A stretch of 64,000 bases of DNA from Candidatus Daviesbacteria bacterium GW2011_GWA1_41_61 (GTDB lineage Bacteria > Patescibacteriota > Microgenomatia > Daviesbacterales > UBA10151). Within the stretch, counting starts at the first letter, position 1, and every line of letters begins with the position of its first letter. Positions 52,554-62,927 of the stretch are shown here, piece by piece. Position numbers and translations under genes: made by a program. The DNA is taken from assembly GCA_000997385.1 (NCBI GenBank), contig LCBT01000001.1:177493-241492 (forward strand), in the 5' to 3' direction. The notes under the pieces were generated by a model, which ran no database searches, was not told the origin of the DNA, and saw only the letters and a list, made by a program, of their open reading frames with translations.

Positions 52554-54119
52554 TTAGGGTAATGGGGTGAAAGAACTGCTTTCTAAAGGAAATATTTTAA
52601 ATAATAAAATGGCATCTTGAGGGCGGTTTTCTCCCTTAGCTTTAGGGTATTCTCTCAAAAGTTCCATGTTTTCTAAGGCTTGTGGGAAACGGGATTTGTT
52701 AGCCACAAAATAAGTAGGATGCTCTTTGGCAGCCTGTCTTAGCTCATCAGAGACCTCTGCCCTACCCCCTACTATTGAAATCTTTTTACCTTCTGAAGCT
52801 TCATGGGAATACTTGTCCAGGTAAATCTGCAGCCCATCAGGCAAAGTCCCAAAATACCCTTCCGTCCCCACTACTACCCCTTCTTTCCCAGCCTCCTGGA
52901 TTAAAAACTGGGCAATTTCAGAAAAACCGTAACCGGCGGTCCAATCTTCCAGATAACCTCTCCTTTCACCTTGAGGCAAAGGGACAGCTGCCGGGTTTGT
53001 CAGCAGTTGGAAGCTAAAATAAAGCGGAGATAAAAGCAATACTACCAGCAGCAAGCTGAAACTTAAAAATGGTTTTAAGGGGATCCTTGATCTTAAATAC
53101 TCTACTCCCCAGGCTGCCAGTACGAAAAGCGGCGGTATGGTAAATAGGATATAACGGGCGGTAAAAGTTTTTAAAAGGGCCATCTCAGCTGCCAGAGGTA
53201 TCAGACTCCAGACTAGAACAACTAAAGCCGGGAGGTTTTTAAAAATAAAAGTTAAAGCTATGCCCAAAAAGATAAACAACAGTACCGGCCAGGTTAAAAA
53301 GATCGGAAACCAGTTATTAATGTCCCCCAAATGGGGTAAAAAAGGGTCCAAGGGCCTGCCCACCAAATCCAGGGGTGAAAACATATAGTCCTGATTACGG
53401 GAAGAAAGGTTATTAAAGTTAGGACCCAGCCTTAAGGCGTTATATATCACCAGGCCGATGGTTACAGCCACTGCCCACAGCCCCACCATCTTTAAAAGCC
53501 TGGTCTGCCGTAGCTTAGGAGACCAATCAAAGATTAAAGCGGTCAGGGGCAAAGCCAGAAGACTAAACATCCCCGGAGTTTTAGTTAAAATCCCTCCTCC
53601 TAAAGAAAAACCCAGGATCATCGCTAAATCCAACCTTAATTTTTGAGCCAGCAGTAAGGCTAAATTTAAAGACCAAACGGAAAAGGCTGCCAGCAGGGAA
53701 TCTACCAAAGCCATCCTGTCAAAAAAAACCATTAAAGGGGTGATTACTACCAAAAATGCTCCTAAAAGCCCCACCCTTAAATTAAAAACTCTCCAGCCTA
53801 AAAAACCCACTCCCAGTAAAGTTAGATATCCGGAAAGGACAGATAAGATTCTGCCAGCTAGTAGTGGATCAGCAAAAATTTTAAATAGGGGCATCATGGC
53901 CCACATAAAAAGAGGTGTTTTACCATCAGATAAAGGTAAAAATCTCAGTGTTGGTTCAGCCCTCATTACCTGAGCCCACCTGATATAAATCGCCTCATCA
54001 GCAAAAATTGGCTGTAAAGTTAAATTAGGTAACCTTAAGGAAAAATATAAAGCAGTAATTAATAGGAAGAAGAGTATCTCCCATTGATATCTTTTAAGCA
54101 ACTTAACCATATTTGCCAT
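52554..54119 (-). CDS. ArnT/PMT-like GT-C glycosyltransferase (GT39/GT83), lipid-carrier dependent
   Basis: 521 aa. LTLQPIFADEAIYIRWAQVM first-loop DE motif, about 12 TM helices. Located immediately downstream of, and overlapping, a DPM1/ArnC-like GT2 gene. Confidence 0.65.
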   Translation of the reverse strand: MANMVKLLKRYQWEILFFLLITALYFSLRLPNLTLQPIFADEAIYIRWAQVMRAEPTLRFLPLSDGKTPLFMWAMMPLFKIFADPLLAGRILSVLSGYLTLLGVGFLGWRVFNLRVGLLGAFLVVITPLMVFFDRMALVDSLLAAFSVWSLNLALLLAQKLRLDLAMILGFSLGGGILTKTPGMFSLLALPLTALIFDWSPKLRQTRLLKMVGLWAVAVTIGLVIYNALRLGPNFNNLSSRNQDYMFSPLDLVGRPLDPFLPHLGDINNWFPIFLTWPVLLFIFLGIALTFIFKNLPALVVLVWSLIPLAAEMALLKTFTARYILFTIPPLFVLAAWGVEYLRSRIPLKPFLSFSLLLVVLLLSPLYFSFQLLTNPAAVPLPQGERRGYLEDWTAGYGFSEIAQFLIQEAGKEGVVVGTEGYFGTLPDGLQIYLDKYSHEASEGKKISIVGGRAEVSDELRQAAKEHPTYFVANKSRFPQALENMELLREYPKAKGENRPQDAILLFKIFPLESSSFTPLP

Positions 54120-54849
54120 CTAAATCATCTTTTCTGATCCGACCCATATCTTTTAAAGCCTCCAGTGCATCATGGATCAGTTGGACTCTTTCGGTCCCCA
54201 CATGGTGCCAAGTAATCGGCACTTCAGCAATTTTAAAACCCATTTTTCTGGCTAAAAATAACATCTCAATATCAAAACCAGCATTCACAGCAGCCCCTTT
54301 GGCCTTCATCCCCTGCCAAATTTGTAGCATCTTAGGAAAAACTTCCCTGATTGCTTTTTGGTTAAAGGCTTTAAAACCACATTGGGTATCAGCAAAGGGC
54401 AAACCTAAACTGAGGTTTCGGATAACAGCAAAACCCCAGGCAGAAAGTTTTCTGATTAAAGGGGCCCCTTCCCTGCCCTTTCTAGAACCTATGACCACAT
54501 CAAACCCCTCTTCAAACTTAGGAAAAAATTTCTCTATCTGATTAATAGGGGTGGACTGATCCAGATCAGTAAAAACAATTATTTCACCTGAAGCCTTTAA
54601 CATCCCGCTGATGACTGTTAAAGCTTTACCGCCATGGGGATTCCTGATTAACTTAAAACCCTTTTTGCTTTTAATAAACTGCTCAATCACATCGGCAGTC
54701 TTATCGGTGGAACCGTCATCGACAATCAAGACTTCATAAGGGTAAGCTTGTTTTTCCAGGTAAGAAGAAACTTTATCCAAAACCCCGGAAGAGAGGTTTT
54801 TCTCTTCATTATATGCTGGAATAACTACTGACAGTTTAAGGTTACCCAT
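54103..54849 (-). CDS. GT2 polyprenol-phosphate sugar synthase (DPM1/ArnC-like)
   Basis: LSVVIPAYNEEKNL...VLIVDDGSTDKT, IIVFTDLDQSTP and FADTQCGFKAFNQKAIREVF. Confidence 0.8.
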   Translation of the reverse strand: MGNLKLSVVIPAYNEEKNLSSGVLDKVSSYLEKQAYPYEVLIVDDGSTDKTADVIEQFIKSKKGFKLIRNPHGGKALTVISGMLKASGEIIVFTDLDQSTPINQIEKFFPKFEEGFDVVIGSRKGREGAPLIRKLSAWGFAVIRNLSLGLPFADTQCGFKAFNQKAIREVFPKMLQIWQGMKAKGAAVNAGFDIEMLFLARKMGFKIAEVPITWHHVGTERVQLIHDALEALKDMGRIRKDDLDGKYG

Positions 54850-54914
54850 AAGCTACAACTAACATTATATGGAAAGTATCCCCTCCTGGCAATTGTACCT
54901 TCCAACTAAAAAGC

Positions 54915-56417
54915 TTATTTTCCTGAAGGGTTGGGGATTAGTTTAAAAACCTTGATACCATCAATTTCCTTAATCCATTCTACCTTAGCCCAACCATAAG
55001 CTGATATTTCATATTTAGGGCTGTTGATGGGGATACACTCCTCATCCTCACAGACCACAAACAACTGATCAGTAATTTCTACCGGCACCACCTTTGGTTT
55101 ATGCCCATAAAGATCAAGGTAATATTGATAAGCTGAATCATAATTACTTTTAGCCAGCAGGGCAAAATTAAAAGGTTGATTATCGGACTGATCAATAATA
55201 AATCTGGCCACCTCCTGAGTTTTACCCAGTTGGTTATTAGGAGGCAAAAGTAAGGGGCTTTTTTGAAAGTTTACAAAACCTAAAACTATCACAAATACCC
55301 CTCCCGCTATTATCTGCCATTTACCCTTCAAATATCCCAATAGCCCTCCAATTAAAAGATAAGGGGCCGGGTTTAAAAAGCCTAAATAGTGATCATAAAT
55401 TTCATTTTTATAAAAAGACAGGCCTATTAATCCTAAAATTAACCAGACACTTAAAACTTTATAATGCCAAGCCAGAGTTTTACCAGCCATCTTAATTTTT
55501 AGGGAAATCAAAAGTGTTAAAACAATCAGCATTGAGACGAGGAGAGTAACCAGCCAATTTGCCCCGCCTATATACCTCCCTATTAATTTCTCATTAAAAA
55601 TATTGATTATCTCCCCTATTCTGGTAATTAAATTAAAACTGACTGCTTCTCCTTTACCAAAAAACATCTCTTGAGCCCCGCGGTAATTTAAAAAGTTATG
55701 GCGGAAATCAAATAGCACTAAGGGAAACATCAAAAGTATAAAGGCCAAAACAGCACCCACAGTACCAGTTAAAAAGAAGCGTTTAGAAGTTTTACTTAAC
55801 AGCTCCATCAGCCAAAGCACTCCGGCAACAGGTACTAAAATTAAAGCTAAATAGTGCATCTGCAAAGCTCCCGCCAGCACCCCGCCGGATAAAATCAACC
55901 ACCGAAAATCCCGGCTTTTGTGGGCTTTATAAAAACCTAGTATTGCCAGTAAGGAGAAAAAAGGGGTGGGATTAGGGTTCCAGGAAAAACGGGAATAATT
56001 AATATTTACCGGGGAAACAGCATAGAGAAAAGAAGATATAAGGGCCGGATATTTACCAAACCACTCCCTGGCTAAATAATAGATCAATCCTACCGCTGCC
56101 ACTCCAATCAAAGCTACCATCCCTGAAGCAGCTACGGGGTTGAGCCAAAAGACAGCCATGGAGACAACCATCATATAGTAATATAAAGGTCCCAAGTAGA
56201 GATTACCAACTGAAGTAGGAGGACCAATAAAGGGCAAATCATGATCTACCAACAAACTTTTGACAATAATAGCATCCCTTCCCTCATCTCCCAAAAAGGT
56301 CATATATTGATCAATTTTGTAAAACCTGAAAAAGGCTGCCAAAAGTAAGATAAAAGATATTAAAAGAAATTCCCCGCGGTTTTGTTTGATCCACTTGATC
56401 ATCTGATCTTCCACCAC
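54915..56417 (-). CDS. GT-C-type polytopic membrane protein (paralog of 15523..17067 and 26289..27743)
   Basis: 500 aa. FLGDEGRDAIIVKSLLVDHDLPFIGPPTSVGNLYLGPLYYY. Confidence 0.55.
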   Translation of the reverse strand: MVEDQMIKWIKQNRGEFLLISFILLLAAFFRFYKIDQYMTFLGDEGRDAIIVKSLLVDHDLPFIGPPTSVGNLYLGPLYYYMMVVSMAVFWLNPVAASGMVALIGVAAVGLIYYLAREWFGKYPALISSFLYAVSPVNINYSRFSWNPNPTPFFSLLAILGFYKAHKSRDFRWLILSGGVLAGALQMHYLALILVPVAGVLWLMELLSKTSKRFFLTGTVGAVLAFILLMFPLVLFDFRHNFLNYRGAQEMFFGKGEAVSFNLITRIGEIINIFNEKLIGRYIGGANWLVTLLVSMLIVLTLLISLKIKMAGKTLAWHYKVLSVWLILGLIGLSFYKNEIYDHYLGFLNPAPYLLIGGLLGYLKGKWQIIAGGVFVIVLGFVNFQKSPLLLPPNNQLGKTQEVARFIIDQSDNQPFNFALLAKSNYDSAYQYYLDLYGHKPKVVPVEITDQLFVVCEDEECIPINSPKYEISAYGWAKVEWIKEIDGIKVFKLIPNPSGK

Positions 56418-57097
56418 AGTTTAAAAAGATCAAGGTATGATTTTATAATCACTTTTGGCTTAACTCCAGTCGGACTACCTGCCAAACGTGGATAGTGATG
56501 AACAGCAACCTGAGCAATTTTAAAACCGGCTTTCTGGGCTTTAATGACAAGTTCGGCATTAATCATACCCCCGATAGTTGATTCAAGAGGCGGGATTTTT
56601 TCCAAAACTTTTTTACTGACCATTTTAAATCCGGTATCAACATCTTTAATATTTAAACCGAAGAAGAGGAAGAGTGACAATGCCCAGCCCTTGGCAGCTA
56701 ACACTCTAAAAAAATTATCACTCCTTTTTACTTTAAAACTGTAAATAACATCAGCTTGGTCAGTCTTTTCCAAAAACTTCGTTACTTCCGAAAAATCAAA
56801 TTGGCCGTCAGCATCGGTATACACTATCCAATCATACTTAGCATTAGAAAAACCTGCCCTAAGGGCATAACCATAACCCCCCTGGGGGAGGTGGACTGTT
56901 TTAATAAAAGGATGCTCTTTAGCTAACGCATCAGTAACTTCAGGACTTTTATCTTTTGACCCATTCTCTACCAGAATGATTTCATATTCTTTAAGAAGCA
57001 GTTTTTGGAGTACCACAATGGCCTTTTCAACAACAAAAGGGACGTTGCTCTCTTCATTATGAACCGGGAAAAAAACTGATAAAGAGTCTGCCTTCAT
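56399..57097 (-). CDS. GT2 polyprenol-phosphate sugar synthase (DPM1-like, soluble)
   Basis: LSVFFPVHNEESNV...IILVENGSKDKS, VYTDADGQFDF and DVDTGFKMVSKKVLEKI. Confidence 0.75.
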   Translation of the reverse strand: MKADSLSVFFPVHNEESNVPFVVEKAIVVLQKLLLKEYEIILVENGSKDKSPEVTDALAKEHPFIKTVHLPQGGYGYALRAGFSNAKYDWIVYTDADGQFDFSEVTKFLEKTDQADVIYSFKVKRSDNFFRVLAAKGWALSLFLFFGLNIKDVDTGFKMVSKKVLEKIPPLESTIGGMINAELVIKAQKAGFKIAQVAVHHYPRLAGSPTGVKPKVIIKSYLDLFKLWWKIR

Positions 57098-57145
57098 CCC
57101 AATAAGTGTAGCACAGATGGCTAATCTTATGCTAACATAACCTCA

Positions 57146-58312
57146 ATGAGTAAAACTGTAAAAGATCTCATCATTATTGCCATTTCTACTTTATTGTTAA
57201 CCTTTTTAGTCTGGCTTCCACACCTGCTCCAGCTTCCCTCCTTTTATGGATTAGATTTTAGCCAAGGGTTTAATACTATCTATCGAAATTTTGATGGCTT
57301 GGAATATGTCATTATTGCCAAAACTTTATATGACCCGCAGGCCATAGCTAGCTTACCTCAATCCTTACCAGCTAATTACTTCGCTGCCCATTTTCCAGGC
57401 TATGCCTTAATAATTTTACTCTTTGCTCCCCTGCTGGGTTTTTTAAAATCAATGCTTTTTACCTCCCTGCTTTTTACCATTCTTTCTGCTGTTACTTTTT
57501 ATTTTTTACTTAAAGATTTTAAACTTAGCTCTCAACCACTCTTTCTGTCACTTCTTTTTCTGCTGCTTCCTGCCAGATGGTTAGTAGTTCACAGTGTTGG
57601 TTCAGCAGAACCCCTCTTTATCTTTTTTGTTTTAGCTGCTGTTTATTGGTTTTTAAAATATGAGCAAACGCTTAAAAGTAAATTGATTTTACTAACCACT
57701 CTTTTTGGAGTACTGGCTCAATTTACCAGACCTCCAGGAATACTGTTATTTATCGCCTTAGCACTTTATGTTGGCTGGAAACTGCTTAATGACAGCAACT
57801 CCAACTTCACCAGAAAAATTAGGAAGACTCTTCCCTATTTCCCTCTATTATTAATTCCAGCTTCCCTTTTAGTAGTCTTTTACTGGTACTCTCTAACCTA
57901 TCAAGACTTTTTTGCTTATTTTCATAGTGGAGATAATATCCATCTGACCTTTCCTCCTTTCCAAGTATTCAATATAAACCAAACTTGGGTAGGAGATATC
58001 TGGCTGGAAGATATTGTTTATATATTTTTACTGGGATTTTTAGGAGGGCTGTTGCTTTTAAAACAGAAATTAATTCTACCAGGAATTTTTGTTCTAACTT
58101 ATCTTTCAGCTGCTATCTTGGTGGCCCACCGGGATATTGCCCGCTATACCTTGCCCATTTTCCCCTTTTTACTGATAGCTTTTGAGAAAGTTTTAATTTC
58201 CAGGGAGTTTAAGATAGCTTTTACTATCATTGCTTTAGGCATATATCTTTATGCTCAAAACTTTATCTTAAATAATACTGCCCCTGTCCCCAGCCTTCAA
58301 GTTTTTAATTAA
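57146..58312 (+). CDS. GT-C membrane protein with PIG-V/GT76-like motif
   Basis: 388 aa polytopic. YRNFDGLEYVIIAKTLY parallels the NFDGEHYLSISIFGY motif in 18335..19513. Confidence 0.4.
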   Translation: MSKTVKDLIIIAISTLLLTFLVWLPHLLQLPSFYGLDFSQGFNTIYRNFDGLEYVIIAKTLYDPQAIASLPQSLPANYFAAHFPGYALIILLFAPLLGFLKSMLFTSLLFTILSAVTFYFLLKDFKLSSQPLFLSLLFLLLPARWLVVHSVGSAEPLFIFFVLAAVYWFLKYEQTLKSKLILLTTLFGVLAQFTRPPGILLFIALALYVGWKLLNDSNSNFTRKIRKTLPYFPLLLIPASLLVVFYWYSLTYQDFFAYFHSGDNIHLTFPPFQVFNINQTWVGDIWLEDIVYIFLLGFLGGLLLLKQKLILPGIFVLTYLSAAILVAHRDIARYTLPIFPFLLIAFEKVLISREFKIAFTIIALGIYLYAQNFILNNTAPVPSLQVFN

Positions 58313-58339: not shown

Positions 58340-59845
58340 TCAATAATTAGCGATCCCCATTTTTTTAACTAATTTACGAACTTCTCTCCTATCAGCATTA
58401 ACATATTTATTATCATATTCTTCTGCCGTTAAAGCTTCACCATTTACTCCAACCAATACGGGAAATTTTAAAGCCATTCTTAAATATTTCACATCCGAAT
58501 AAAAAACCCGATCACTTTTTATAAGAAGGTGATCTTTGTTTATTTGATAAGGCACCTTTAATCCTAAGTGTTGTAACTGGTTTTGGACATCTATTTCTTT
58601 TGGTTGACTTAACACTGCCTGAGCGCAAATTTCTTTTTGAGATTGAGGGCAAAGTGGCGAGCAGTAAATCTCGGGGCGTATCCACTGACAATTATAATCA
58701 GGTTGATTAAATAGGCAGCTGATGGCACATGAGGTTTTCTTAAAATAGGGTACTTTTGACCGACCCAGGAGATAATCAACTCTAGCTCGACTCCGGGCAG
58801 ACATCTGCTTCAAAGAATCATGAATATTTAATCCTATATCATAACCTGAATCAACAGGTAGACCTCGTTTGGTCATGTACTCCACAATACTGACATCCAG
58901 CTTTAACGCTGACCGAACAATACAGTGGAAATATTTTTCACCCAGTTCCATAATCCTGCGAATTGTTTTTTCAGAATCATTGACTCCTTCAATGATTGGT
59001 CGGTAATAAAGAATCCTCGGCAAATGTGATTTTGACAGATTTTCCATTGTTTCTAATCTCCTCTCATCAACCACTTTTTCATACTCAGGAGGTAAACCAG
59101 AAAAGGTGACAAAAATAACAGGCCGAATATTCTTATAATTTTCAAGACGGTTAATTACTTCGGTGGGTAAATATTCTTTAGTAATTAAACCGACAATATT
59201 AGTCATTCCTCTTACTTCTAAGCCATCCATAATTTTAAAAGTTGTTGCCTCAACCTCTTTTTGAAACGGATCAGTAGCACTGTTGTGAATAGCCAGAGGA
59301 ATCTTAGGATGAAAGTAGCGATGATTGGGAAGTGAACTTAAGATATCTTCAACTTCGGCAAATTGCTGGGGAACAAATCTGTTTTTAATATCCCATCCAT
59401 GCTTATAACAATAAACGCAGTTATTTCGGCAACCAGCTACAGCATTAAGACAAAGAAAATTTTTTGCCAAAACAATTGGTTCTAATTTAACTTTAATGTT
59501 TTCCTTTTCAGCTTTGCGCCGCATTTCTCTAAATTCATATTTACGCAAGCTCTTTTCAAGTTGTTCCTCAAGACTGATATTGTAAATATTGGCTAAGGCT
59601 ATGAGAGAATAGAAACTGTCACCTAATTCTCTCGCTAAATCTGGGTTGTAAATATGTTCTCTTCTACCATAGTCAGTAAGTTCAAGTACTTCCTTAGCAA
59701 GTTCTCCTACTTCACTGGATAGATCTAAGGCGCAGATTTCAGGGGTACTGGCTAAATTTAATCTTCTGGTTGCTTCAGCAACTCTTTTTTGTATTTCAAT
59801 CATTTCTAAATCCAGACAGTTTTCTAAAGGGATCATATAAATCAT
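58340..59845 (-). CDS. fusion protein: MazG-like NTP pyrophosphohydrolase domain, SplB/COG1533-like radical SAM domain and Cys-rich C-terminal segment
   Basis: The N-terminal ~105 aa carry EVGELAKEVLEL...ELGDSFYSLIALANIYNISLEEQLEKSLRKYEFR, the MazG/NTP-PPase all-alpha signature. Residues ~130-145 carry AVAGCRNNCVYCYKHGW (CxxxCxxC, in the GCxxxCxYCY style of SplB-like DNA-repair-photolyase radical SAMs). The C-terminus has CAISC...C...CSPLC...C. Confidence 0.6.
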   Translation of the reverse strand: MIYMIPLENCLDLEMIEIQKRVAEATRRLNLASTPEICALDLSSEVGELAKEVLELTDYGRREHIYNPDLARELGDSFYSLIALANIYNISLEEQLEKSLRKYEFREMRRKAEKENIKVKLEPIVLAKNFLCLNAVAGCRNNCVYCYKHGWDIKNRFVPQQFAEVEDILSSLPNHRYFHPKIPLAIHNSATDPFQKEVEATTFKIMDGLEVRGMTNIVGLITKEYLPTEVINRLENYKNIRPVIFVTFSGLPPEYEKVVDERRLETMENLSKSHLPRILYYRPIIEGVNDSEKTIRRIMELGEKYFHCIVRSALKLDVSIVEYMTKRGLPVDSGYDIGLNIHDSLKQMSARSRARVDYLLGRSKVPYFKKTSCAISCLFNQPDYNCQWIRPEIYCSPLCPQSQKEICAQAVLSQPKEIDVQNQLQHLGLKVPYQINKDHLLIKSDRVFYSDVKYLRMALKFPVLVGVNGEALTAEEYDNKYVNADRREVRKLVKKMGIANY

Positions 59846-59870
59846 ATCTTATACCTTCTAGCCAAGAGAA

Positions 59871-59904
59871 TTTGAGTCAAATTTTTTTGACTTGTAGTAT
59901 AATC
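59871..59904. promoter_or_regulatory. divergent promoter with palindromic operator candidate
   Basis: Inverted repeat AGTCAAA-tttt-TTTGACT (59876-59893), followed by a perfect TATAAT (59899-59904) 9 nt upstream of the ATG at 59913. Lies in the 67 nt gap between divergent genes. Confidence 0.4.
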
Positions 59905-59912
59905 TCCCCAAG

Positions 59913-60578
59913 ATGCATCCAGTCCAAAAGCAAATACTTTCCCAGCTTATTTTTAATCCTTGCTTTCCCTTCTCTAAGCTTAAATCCAAAGAGGTGGAAG
60001 GAAATTTATTCATCTATCACTTAAAACAATTGATAACAGAAGGTTTGGTGCAAAAAACTTCAGATGGTAAATATGAATTGACCTTAGAAGGTAAAATTTA
60101 TACTGATAAATTAAGCCTGAAGACTTTTAAGCCCAGAATCCAACCTAAAATAGCCACTTTAATAGTTTGTCAAAATAATCAGGGAGAGTATTTACTTTAC
60201 AAAAGAAAACGTCAGCCATTTTTAGAACTAGTTGGCTTTCCCTATGGAAAGATTCACCTGGAGGAAACCACCCTTCAAGCTGCCCAAAGAGAACTAGAAG
60301 AGAAGACAGGTTTATCAGCTAATTTAAAGCACCTGGGAGAGGTTTATCTTACTACCTTTAAAGATCAACAGCTTTTAAGCCAAATGTTATGTCATATTTT
60401 CTTTACAGAGGATCTCAAAGGAAGGCTAAAACAGTCCTTTGAAGCTGGAGAGTGCTTTTGGGGGAAGATAGAATCTTTTAAACCAGAAGAGCTAATCCCA
60501 GGAGTTTTAGATGTTTACAAGTTAATTAAATCCCCTTCTAATTTCCTCTTCTTCCAAGAATTCACTTACCACCTTTAA
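59913..60578 (+). CDS. winged-helix DNA-binding domain fused to NUDIX hydrolase domain (possible Nudix-related regulator)
   Basis: The N-terminus (QKQILSQLIFNPCFPFSKLK...GNLFIYHLKQLITEGLVQKTSDGKYELTLEGK) is a wHTH domain. GFPYGKIHLEETTLQAAQRELEEKTGL matches the Nudix box GX5EX7REUXEEXGU. Confidence 0.7.
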   Translation: MHPVQKQILSQLIFNPCFPFSKLKSKEVEGNLFIYHLKQLITEGLVQKTSDGKYELTLEGKIYTDKLSLKTFKPRIQPKIATLIVCQNNQGEYLLYKRKRQPFLELVGFPYGKIHLEETTLQAAQRELEEKTGLSANLKHLGEVYLTTFKDQQLLSQMLCHIFFTEDLKGRLKQSFEAGECFWGKIESFKPEELIPGVLDVYKLIKSPSNFLFFQEFTYHL

Positions 60579-60737
60579 GCTATATCTATTCCTTAGCTTC
60601 ACAAGGCCAGGCCTTGCAGGAGTGTCCCTTGCTTAAATTACTCAACTAAATTGGACGATCGTTTAAAAAATACAAATAATGACGTTGATTCTGCTAATGC
60701 ATTCCTCTATAATTGCCCATAATCGTGGAATCTAAAA

Positions 60738-61670
60738 ATGGCTGAACGGAGTATTTTTGATAACCCCATCGCTGAAGAAGCCTATCATAAAAGTGGAAGT
60801 CTGCTTTGGTTAGGTAGTGAAACCAATCCAAACAACTTAACAATTAAATGGCCAATTAAAGACTTTGCGCATGTAACCTCCACATCTGGTGATTTTGCCT
60901 GCTCTTTGCGCCAGCTTTATGAATACCTCAGGATGGCAGAATTTTGGCCTCAAACATCTTTATACTTTTTATCACATAAAACCAATCGGGTATCCGTACT
61001 ATCTTACTTTCAACAGATTGCTGATTCAACCAATAAAAGAGTAGTTGTCTGTGATAATAGCCCTAAAGGCCGATATCAGATATTAAGAACAAGCCTCTTG
61101 TTTACATTAGAACCAGGAGTTACTCTAGACTCCAGATTACAACAAATGCATCAACTTGCTCACCAAGGAGTAGATATACTTTCATTGAGTACTAATGTGC
61201 GCTCTATAGTACTTATTGGTTCATTGGCTGATGGCTTTCTTTATCCGAGTGATATCGATTTAGGAATTGTTGTTCGTAAACCATTAAACGCATTCGGGAA
61301 TAGGGACATACACAATGATGTAGTACAAGTAAGAGCTGGTGATCGATGTTTATCCAAAATACCTTATGGGTGGGAAGGTGAAGTTGCAGGCCATTATATT
61401 GAAACTCCTCTATTGGACCAGCTAGAAAAACTCTTTCTAGATGCAGCTACCAATATCCATGGGGTAATTATTCCTCAAAAACATTATTTCCACCCTACTT
61501 GCTGTGGATGGCATAATAAATGGCTTTCCACTTTTCGCCGAGGGGCTACTATATATCAAGGTCGACCAACATCAGAAGACAAACTACAAGGCATTTACTA
61601 CTCTTTCGCTGGAAAAATTAGTGACATTAAGGGAGAAATTGGGGAGAGGTCACATTGGTTGATTGGCTAA
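60738..61670 (+). CDS. hypothetical protein with Pol-beta-type nucleotidyltransferase motif
   Basis: 310 aa. LIGSLADGFLYPSDIDLGIV matches hG[GS]-x9-13-DhDh at ~residue 165-182. The N-terminal ~150 aa have no recognised features. Confidence 0.45.
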   Translation: MAERSIFDNPIAEEAYHKSGSLLWLGSETNPNNLTIKWPIKDFAHVTSTSGDFACSLRQLYEYLRMAEFWPQTSLYFLSHKTNRVSVLSYFQQIADSTNKRVVVCDNSPKGRYQILRTSLLFTLEPGVTLDSRLQQMHQLAHQGVDILSLSTNVRSIVLIGSLADGFLYPSDIDLGIVVRKPLNAFGNRDIHNDVVQVRAGDRCLSKIPYGWEGEVAGHYIETPLLDQLEKLFLDAATNIHGVIIPQKHYFHPTCCGWHNKWLSTFRRGATIYQGRPTSEDKLQGIYYSFAGKISDIKGEIGERSHWLIG

Positions 61671-61733: not shown

Positions 61734-62927
61734 TTATACTGAAGCTAGCTCTTTTTGATGTTTCCAGGTTACCAAATGGTTAACTGTAAAATTCCACATC
61801 ATCACCGGAGGGATGGTGGCAAAAAAGTATAAGGTATTGTAGGCCAAACGTATGGGCCCAAAGTAGAAAAATCCATCTCCAAACAGTTCATGTAAAAACT
61901 TGACAATCAACACTGCTATAGCTAGACCTCCCAAACTGACTAAGTTATAAAGACCTAATTTTTGCCAGATATTAGTTTTAGTTTTCCTATACCTGAAGGT
62001 CCAAAAATTATTAAATACAAAGTTGTTGATAATGGCAATCTCTGTCGAAAAAGCTTTGGAAGTAGCTGGAGGGAAACCCCCCATGTTGATCAACAGTTTA
62101 TAAAAAATAAAGTCCACCACTGTCCCTGTAACTCCCACCAAAGCAAATTTAATAAAAGTTTTAGCTCTCCTGGTGATCTTAAAAAGAGGCAGGTTAACCC
62201 CCCACTTGTGAAGCCTGACATCCAAAGCATAGGTAATTACATCATAAGTATAATTAAAAACTTTATTCTTTGAATATCCTTCTTCCCGGTTTTTAAACAC
62301 TAAAGGTACTTCTTTATATTTGGCCCCAGCAAGTATAGCTTCATTTAAGAAAGCAGGCTGGACGATGAATGTCTGCTCTTTCCAGGGCAGTCTGTCAAAA
62401 TTTATCTTATTATATAGGTCTGGAGTAAAAGCCCGGGCAGAGTTAGTTACCTCCTGAATATCAGAAGGACCCACCAGTACGCGTGTCACCAAAGAAGCTC
62501 CTAAACTGAAAATTCTTCTTAAAAAAGAAAGCTGATTTTTACCACCCTTAACAAATCTTGAACCTAAAGCCAAAGTGTACCCCTCATTTAAAGCCTTCAA
62601 AAGTCTCGGTAATACATTAGCTTCTACCTGGCCGTCAGCATCAAGTTGGGCCAAAGCATCTGGCTTGAGGTGCTCTAAAGAAAATTTATGTCCTTCTACC
62701 AATCCCACACCTAAACCTTTACCTACACTAAGAGCGTGTATCCTTTGGTCCTTCTTCCCTAATTCTTGAGCCAGTTTAAAAGTCCCATCAGGGGAATTAC
62801 TGTCAACTACTAAAACTTCAAACTTCCAACCAGGAGCATTTTTTTCCTCAGCAAAAACCTCTTTAATAAATTTCTCTAAACTATTTTTCTCATTAAAAGT
62901 AGGGAGTAAAATAACCGCTTTTTTCAT
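61734..62927 (-). CDS. GT2 polyprenol-phosphate glycosyltransferase fused to C-terminal GtrA-like membrane domain
   Basis: The N-terminus has AVILLPTFNEKNSLEKFIKEV...VLVVDSNSPDGT and LDADGQ. The C-terminal ~130 aa form 4 TM helices with the GtrA-like pattern (FALVGVTGTVVDFIFY...NNFWTF). Confidence 0.7.
   Translation of the reverse strand: MKKAVILLPTFNEKNSLEKFIKEVFAEEKNAPGWKFEVLVVDSNSPDGTFKLAQELGKKDQRIHALSVGKGLGVGLVEGHKFSLEHLKPDALAQLDADGQVEANVLPRLLKALNEGYTLALGSRFVKGGKNQLSFLRRIFSLGASLVTRVLVGPSDIQEVTNSARAFTPDLYNKINFDRLPWKEQTFIVQPAFLNEAILAGAKYKEVPLVFKNREEGYSKNKVFNYTYDVITYALDVRLHKWGVNLPLFKITRRAKTFIKFALVGVTGTVVDFIFYKLLINMGGFPPATSKAFSTEIAIINNFVFNNFWTFRYRKTKTNIWQKLGLYNLVSLGGLAIAVLIVKFLHELFGDGFFYFGPIRLAYNTLYFFATIPPVMMWNFTVNHLVTWKHQKELASV

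Follow-up and report, generated by a model that had tools for sequence, protein, structure and literature searches.

Three adjacent genes in a 64-kb stretch of the genome of Candidatus Daviesbacteria bacterium GW2011_GWA1_41_61 (contig LCBT01000001.1, positions 177,493 to 241,492; the whole stretch is referred to as the window) raise the question of whether they act together as one system. A radical S-adenosylmethionine (SAM) protein with a MazG domain (MazG-rSAM) is encoded on the minus strand (58340-59845, 501 amino acids (aa), identical to UU73_C0001G0212), divergently from a protein that joins a winged helix-turn-helix (wHTH) to a Nudix domain (59913-60578, plus strand, 221 aa). These two genes are separated by an intergenic region of 67 nucleotides (nt) at 59846-59912, and 159 nt beyond the wHTH-Nudix gene begins a third open reading frame (ORF) for a nucleotidyltransferase (NTase)-like protein (60738-61670, plus strand, 310 aa, identical to UU73_C0001G0214). 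An initial annotation, made from the sequence alone, proposed that these genes form a single module and a candidate defence cassette. Much of its description stands: the divergent genes, the 67-nt spacer with a palindrome and a TATAAT box, and the GS-x9-DID motif of the third product are all found in the sequence, and Pfam searches and family alignments confirm the three domain calls. What it gave as one plus-strand gene at 59913-61670 does lie on that strand, but is two genes. The genome belongs to the Microgenomates within the Candidate Phyla Radiation (CPR), bacteria whose genomes are very small and in which hardly any regulators or repair enzymes have been characterised. As we argue below, the locus is best read as three separate functional units brought together by chance, two of them possibly under shared regulation.

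The three genes are not conserved together

Twenty-four comparison loci (L001-L024) were fetched and searched by tblastn with the three window proteins. In none of them does the NTase-like gene lie near either partner, and the three genes were not found together in any other sequence examined, the very outcome on which it had been decided beforehand that the three-gene module should be given up. The Nudix gene occurs near MazG-rSAM in only two other Daviesbacteria lineages, one represented by L018 and the other by five loci of L001 type (L001, L002, L003, L005 and L011); the radical SAM proteins of both are 69% identical to that of the window. One of the L001-type loci, L005 (CAYRCR010000004.1), is titled 'uncultured Gammaproteobacteria bacterium'; its tblastn matches coincide in position and identity with those of L001-L003 and L011, whose radical SAM protein is named from a Daviesbacteria genome, and the label of this metagenome-assembled genome is probably a binning or taxonomy error.

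Elsewhere the MazG-rSAM gene is usually solitary and lies in unrelated contexts. It is present without the Nudix gene in L006, L007, L012, L014, L021 and L022. In Niyogibacteria (L006/L013) it adjoins a copper ATPase, in L007, L012 and L014 it is preceded by a conserved Cys-rich ORF of 212-220 aa, in L021 it adjoins NrdR, Fmt and Def, and in L022 it stands among hydrogenase genes. The closest homologue of all (80%, L023) precedes an adenylate-kinase-like gene and has a co-directional gene upstream. A Nudix gene near the radical SAM gene of L021 was considered as a fourth co-occurrence and rejected, its product being of another family, with a Zn-ribbon and the canonical REVKEETGL.

The wHTH-Nudix gene, in turn, is found without MazG-rSAM in L019, L020 and L024, where it is part of a backbone that runs LigT, Nudix, divergent variable genes, PD-(D/E)XK and TsaD. 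In Daviesbacteria the constant neighbour of the Nudix gene on its convergent side is LigT, a 2H phosphoesterase. Between the Nudix and PD-(D/E)XK genes lies a hypervariable slot (L001:4590-8308, L018:1996-5989, L019:4446-6666, L020:959-4174 and L024:3448-6666), whose content differs between genomes and consists of unrelated small ORFs or the radical SAM gene. Toxin-antitoxin genes (Fic/MazE, PIN, Gp49/HTH) and an AbiJ-NTD4/Bro-N gene occur near this slot. None of the backbone genes LigT, PD-(D/E)XK and TsaD is present in the 64 kb of the window. As the radical SAM and Nudix genes are nonetheless adjacent and divergent there, this is modest evidence for a link between the two.

A palindrome is kept upstream of the wHTH-Nudix gene

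The divergent spacer contains, in order, a conserved block TTCTAGCCAAGAG (59856-59868), a half-site TTTGA (59871-59875), the palindrome AGTCAAA-TTTT-TTTGACT (59875-59892) and a -10 box TATAAT (59898-59903), with 9 nt between its end and the Nudix ATG. Judged on the window sequence only, the palindrome does not exceed chance expectation, given that 25 of 100 shuffled sequences yield at least one match at no more than one mismatch. Its significance comes instead from its being kept at the same position in orthologous loci. The window, L018, L019 and L020 each contain a single exact copy of GTCAAA-N4-TTTGAC, in every case a short way upstream of the Nudix start codon; the element is found again in L024, and L001 carries a form of it with three half-sites. 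Thus, 6/6 orthologous loci have a palindrome some 20-40 nt ahead of the Nudix ATG, exact in five and variant in L001. Moreover, the whole block TTCTAGCCAAGAG-N3-TTTGAGTCAAA-N4-TTTGAC-N5/6-TAnAAT can be aligned between genomes whose Nudix proteins are only ~58-67% identical.

This block is also kept in L019, L020 and L024, loci in which genes unrelated to MazG-rSAM take the divergent position. Therefore, the palindrome belongs to the Nudix gene rather than to its neighbour, and it is most likely the operator of the wHTH-Nudix protein itself. The most economical reading of the arrangement would be autorepression, through an operator that overlaps an extended -10 promoter. The operator suggested by the initial annotation thus survives as a palindrome kept in front of the Nudix gene, although it carries no significance in the window taken by itself. 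A gap of 9 nt between the -10-like box and the Nudix ATG, with no Shine-Dalgarno sequence, is common to the window, L018 and L020; its constancy suggests a leaderless Nudix mRNA.

The wHTH-Nudix protein compared with NrtR

The N-terminal winged helix (aa ~1-70) is encoded at 59913-60122 and the Nudix domain (aa 79-193) at 60147-60491, both on the plus strand. The Nudix assignment is secure: the domain scores 55 bits against a Pfam cut-off of 21.1, all 51 aligned family members match NUDIX, and the protein has the Nudix superfamily fold. The winged helix is weak on the single sequence (E 0.01-0.05) and emerges at the level of the family, in which 36/51 members match DUF7347 and 25/51 match HTH_45. 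The homologues of this family fall into at least 190 clusters, with identities of 45-67% and a length that is almost always ~221 aa, and those members with a named source come mostly from Daviesbacteria or Microgenomates.

The canonical Nudix box is GX5EX7REUXEEXGU. Here the box (60246-60314, plus strand) reads G-x5-E-x7-RELEEKTGL and is incomplete, Lys131 taking the place of the second Glu of 'EE'. Across the 51 members, G112, E118, R126, E127, E130 and K131 show little or no variation, K131 being invariant, and the family box is G-x5-E-x7-RELxEKxGL. The nearest relatives of the domain in the PDB are of MutT/MTH1 type. By analogy with known regulators, the domain may act as a sensor of a nucleotide or nucleotide derivative, or as a weak hydrolase, that sets DNA binding.

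The regulator that comes closest to this design is NrtR, in which, as outlined in PMC2330246, a Nudix-like domain at the N-terminus precedes a wHTH at the C-terminus, and for which autorepression is documented (PMC6800001). Both proteins combine a winged helix with a Nudix fold of non-canonical signature in one polypeptide, again as NrtR is outlined there (PMC2330246), and the palindrome in front of its own gene in 6/6 loci, to which the protein described here is predicted to bind, would add to the likeness. In contrast to the NrtR architecture of that outline, the wHTH is N-terminal and the Nudix domain follows it. The differences extend further: the Nudix domain is nearest to MutT/MTH1 and not to the ADP-ribose pyrophosphatases, no NAD-metabolism genes lie nearby, the operator sequence is unrelated, and no sequence-level membership emerged. 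With the domain order reversed, the comparison with NrtR is an analogy only. The kinship to Nudix-related transcriptional regulators that the initial annotation proposed is therefore kept as an analogy and dropped as family membership. Nevertheless, the mirror image of the NrtR architecture, together with the element TTTGA-G-TCAAA-N4-TTTGAC kept across Daviesbacteria, defines a testable candidate pair of regulator and operator.

A MazG-radical SAM fusion restricted to CPR bacteria

The product of the minus-strand gene has three parts. A MazG-type all-alpha nucleoside triphosphate (NTP) pyrophosphohydrolase domain (59492-59803, aa ~15-118) with the motifs ExxE (SEVGE) and ExxD (RELGD) precedes a radical SAM core (58736-59488, aa ~120-370), whose CX3CX2C motif is encoded at 59408-59431, and a conserved C-terminal region of ~130 aa (58343-58735, aa 371-501) with conserved Cys and an LTAEEYD motif. 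The protein scores 30 bits against a Pfam cut-off of 22 for MazG (E 6.5e-7), above the gathering score and with the ExxE...ExxD metal-binding motifs of that family in place. For Radical_SAM it scores 29.0 bits against 29.5, and it has the CX3CX2C [4Fe-4S]-binding motif and the partial TIM-barrel core of the superfamily. A search of 5.8 billion proteins returned 23 homologue clusters, so that the family is rare, and all are from CPR bacteria. In an alignment of these clusters the motif cysteines C139, C143 and C146 are invariant, as are many residues of the core.

The MazG metal motifs SEVGE and RELGD are kept in 17/17 homologues that bear the domain, and six shorter homologues lack it; from the latter we take MazG to be an add-on to a core made of the radical SAM and C-terminal domains. 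In its MazG part the family profile matches Bacillus subtilis YpjD (2gta, 1e-8) and 5ie9 (2e-8). The domain departs from MazG/YpjD in its fusion to a radical SAM enzyme and in having Ser for the first Glu of the usual EExxE. A structure model is of low confidence over the MazG domain (predicted local distance difference test (pLDDT) 37-69) and confident over the C-terminal region (pLDDT ~87-95). The latter has no sequence match in the PDB; its C373, C399 and C407 are invariant and C395 is present in at least 90% of sequences, a pattern from which a second metal or Fe-S site might be expected.

Of the curated families, PA0069 is matched by 21/23 members, 'rSAM mobile pair B' by 12/23 and Rv2578c by 3/23, at scores far under the family cut-offs (PA0069 25.8 against 360 bits; Rv2578c and mobile pair B at E 1e-4 to 1e-6). 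Judged from these matches, MazG-rSAM is distantly related to the 'DNA repair photolyase' branch (SplB/COG1533) and belongs to no named family. In addition to falling below the cut-off, it differs from the proteins of that branch (PA0069, Rv2578c, 'rSAM mobile pair B') in its N-terminal MazG and its ~130-aa Cys-rich C-terminal domain, neither of which matches the curated models of those families, in its restriction to CPR bacteria, and in that no LexA context was seen. For the COG1533/SplB orthologous group, LexA-regulated members have been reported in Actinobacteria and several proteobacterial classes, making it SOS-regulated in several phyla (PMC4951493, PMC8565304). It is this repeated LexA/SOS regulation of the branch that leads us to guess at a repair-type function for MazG-rSAM.

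The window protein is 64% identical to its counterpart in Niyogibacteria (L006/L013). This identity across lineages and the patchy distribution of the family suggest that the gene moved horizontally within the CPR, rather than by vertical descent. We found no description of the MazG-rSAM fusion in the searchable literature.

Two further observations concern this gene. The first 14 codons of the annotated ORF (59803-59845) are matched by no homologue, homologues starting near Met15; translation may thus begin at 59803, in which case the divergent spacer would grow to 109 nt. The Cys-rich ORF noted above lies directly upstream on the same strand in three CPR lineages outside Daviesbacteria (L007:5270-5917, L012:201-863 and L014:4600-5238) and is the commonest partner of the radical SAM gene, but is absent from the window. 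Its product has two CxxC...CxC knuckles and no match in Pfam or the PDB. The idea that it might be a tandem MazG was rejected, as it had nothing beyond a likeness of helices by eye and an hhalign probability of 1.7%.

An orphan NTase-like protein

The third product begins with an alpha/beta domain (aa 1 to ~125) that matches nothing in our searches, continues with a minimal core of the Pol-beta NTase fold (aa ~126-250), in which GS-x9-DID is encoded at 61218-61259 on the plus strand, and has a C-terminal part after this core with a conserved C204, a CC pair and H259. The earlier description of a minimal Pol-beta motif behind an unrecognised N-terminal domain is borne out. In a word-indexed search the protein matches only itself, and an exhaustive phmmer search of 1.84 billion representative proteins recovered four remote homologues (E 1e-20 to 2e-6). 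Among the resulting five sequences G161, S162, D172, D174, C204 and H259 are invariant, and there is no invariant third carboxylate. The four homologues lie on contigs of 1.2-2.2 kb, and within these short contigs none is seen beside a wHTH-Nudix or MazG-rSAM gene. In a single case, on the 2.2-kb contig L009, the ORF upstream of the homologue P0026 (1224-2048) encodes a radical SAM protein of another family (3-989, CPFNCKFC).

A minimal NTase core with GSx(9-10)DxD is shared with MNT/MntA and ANT, and the motif is that of HEPN-MNT. The MNT of the HEPN-MNT (type VII) toxin-antitoxin systems is a small protein of ~100-140 aa with an adjacent HEPN toxin gene, whereas the protein described here has 310 aa and no adjacent HEPN gene, its neighbours being the Nudix and GT2/GtrA genes. 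Its NCBIfam scores are 15 against 60 bits for MntA and 13.9 against 193 bits for ANT, and it differs from MNT and ANT in the extra N-terminal domain of ~125 aa, in the Cys- and His-containing C-terminal part and in having no invariant third carboxylate. The comparison with cGAS/DncV-like NTases (CD-NTases), MNT/HEPN and ANT, which had been called for earlier, thus places the protein outside the thresholds or defining features of these families.

A promoter-like site TTGATT-17-TATAAT (60685-60713, plus strand), a consensus match only, is located 24 nt upstream of the NTase ATG and suggests that this gene is its own transcription unit. It is the best-scoring site in a consensus scan of the region (10/12 matches), in which the total of promoter-like sites is not above that of shuffled sequences. 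The predicted RNA fold of 60570-60740 is ordinary (z = -1.15). We also considered a perfect 15-nt inverted repeat (60212-60226 / 60731-60745) that covers the NTase start codon, and set it aside as within chance expectation.

Defence systems and phages

PADLOC returned generic domain matches only, for the Nudix protein (PDC-S07, 1.6e-7) and the NTase-like protein (PDC-S09, 0.057), and nothing for MazG-rSAM. A search of PHROGs gave one weak match, to phrog_13321, a phage family of unknown function (5e-8). The defence models did not recognise the radical SAM protein as viperin-like, which separates it from the prokaryotic viperins (pVip), and neither a cGAS/DncV-like fold with an adjacent effector nor recognition by defence models, as would be expected of CD-NTases in cyclic-oligonucleotide-based anti-phage signalling systems (CBASS), was found. 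Membership of a defence system was therefore rejected on the PADLOC and PHROGs results, and with it the candidate defence cassette of the initial annotation. No relatives of the radical SAM protein were detected in 50,697 phage records or in IMG/VR, nor was there a significant viral structural match for the NTase-like protein, and a phage origin was likewise rejected.

How the locus may work

We consider that there is about an even chance that the locus consists of an autoregulated wHTH-Nudix regulator, a possibly co-controlled accessory MazG-rSAM enzyme of damage control and an unrelated orphan NTase. Under this reading a dimer of the wHTH-Nudix protein most likely binds TTTGA-G-TCAAA-N4-TTTGAC, an element that overlaps the extended -10 promoter of its own gene, and represses that gene. 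The variant MutT-like Nudix domain, with its invariant Lys for a metal-binding Glu, would sense or slowly hydrolyse a nucleotide, in the manner of NrtR with the domain order reversed. MazG-rSAM would be an accessory, horizontally mobile and CPR-restricted enzyme of the SplB/PA0069 branch, predicted to direct 5'-deoxyadenosyl radical chemistry at a base, damaged or unusual, of DNA or of a nucleotide; the MazG domain joined to it may hydrolyse non-canonical (d)NTPs, which would make the whole an enzyme of genome integrity or nucleotide sanitation. In the window 30-72 nt separate the MazG-rSAM start codon from the Nudix operator, and for this reason co-repression by the wHTH-Nudix protein is probable in this genome. 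The 310-aa protein would stand outside this pair as a lineage-specific, stand-alone minimal NTase with its own promoter, transferring a nucleoside monophosphate to an acceptor. A sanitation or repair enzyme with a regulator, which the initial annotation had offered as its simpler alternative, thus fits better than the cassette.

Several points weigh against this reading. The pairing of the radical SAM and Nudix genes is limited to close relatives, so that shared ancestry alone could explain their adjacency, and in the L001-type and L018 loci an extra ORF of 188-208 aa lies between them. A consensus scan found no -35/-10 pair on either strand of the 67-nt spacer, and a canonical sigma-70 promoter was accordingly rejected there. 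The change of Glu to Lys in the Nudix box does not prove loss of hydrolase activity, and both DNA binding and co-regulation of the pair are predictions from sequence. Moreover, a hypervariable slot near toxin-antitoxin and AbiJ/Bro-N genes in relatives would also fit a role in conflict.

The first of these points lead to the possibility that there is no functional link at all, the genes being independent, the Nudix gene regulating only itself and the adjacency going back to one ancestral insertion in three Daviesbacteria. Such an account agrees with the 69% identity of the paired radical SAM proteins, with the extra gene that splits the pair in L001 and L018, with the co-directional upstream gene that the closest homologue also has and with an operator that is kept whatever the neighbour. 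On the other hand, the window pair is still adjacent and divergent although the backbone is gone from the 64 kb, and at so short a distance between operator and radical SAM start regulatory cross-talk would be physically hard to avoid; on balance we regard this account as somewhat unlikely. The last point leads elsewhere, to a wHTH-Nudix protein that, by sensing a nucleotide, would act as gatekeeper to a hypervariable slot for accessory or defence genes, with MazG-rSAM as an interchangeable effector of conflict that acts on a modified nucleotide and not in repair. The divergent genes between Nudix and PD-(D/E)XK do differ between genomes (L001-type, L018, L019, L020 and L024), toxin-antitoxin modules and an AbiJ-NTD4/Bro-N protein are nearby, the radical SAM gene is rare, patchy and horizontally transferred within the CPR, and there is the weak match to phrog_13321. 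We think this unlikely. In its boldest form, a wHTH-Nudix repressor would guard the slot and MazG-rSAM would be an undescribed radical enzyme directed at nucleotides or DNA, either an anti-phage effector of CPR bacteria or a class of radical DNA repair with sanitation of dNTPs, and this too we would accept only with considerable doubt. Very improbable, finally, is the single three-gene system of nucleotide signalling or anti-phage defence, in which the NTase would make a signal, MazG and Nudix would degrade or sense it and the radical SAM protein would be the effector. All three products have nucleotide-handling domains, the Nudix and NTase-like proteins have their weak PADLOC matches, and in L009 an NTase homologue follows a radical SAM gene of another family, but the three genes are not co-conserved in the sequences examined.

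The results most open to reuse are the candidate operator defined here and the CPR-restricted and apparently undescribed MazG-rSAM family now delimited. The nearest relatives of the latter are uncharacterised SOS-regulated SplB/PA0069 enzymes, and solving one might explain the other. A plausible-looking defence system is also struck from the list of candidates. For a specialist these results are not very surprising, and they open no long-standing question.

Surroundings of the locus

The locus is flanked by GT2 and PMT_2 glycosylation genes (52554-57097) on one side and by a GT2+GtrA gene (61734-62927) on the other. A multi-pass membrane ORF of 388 aa (57146-58312), which has no Pfam match, stands between the run of glycosyltransferases and the radical SAM gene. 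The initial annotation described the three genes as inserted between glycosylation genes, and these flanks are as it stated. Flanking direct repeats and a tRNA were looked for at the locus and not found, and its GC content of 0.35-0.39 is no anomaly against a window mean of ~0.38. Thus, there is no mark of a recent insertion, and insertion of a mobile element was rejected. An Rfam search of the intergenic regions gave no match at E <= 1. Ahead of the locus, the window holds ~40 consecutive ORFs at 1-57100, mostly on the minus strand and of 260-1159 aa. The five ORFs scanned (52554-58312) are alternating GT2 and PMT_2 glycosyltransferases plus the one unassigned membrane ORF, and the series as a whole suggests a cluster for glycosylation of the cell envelope that is unusually long for a genome of ~0.63 Mb.

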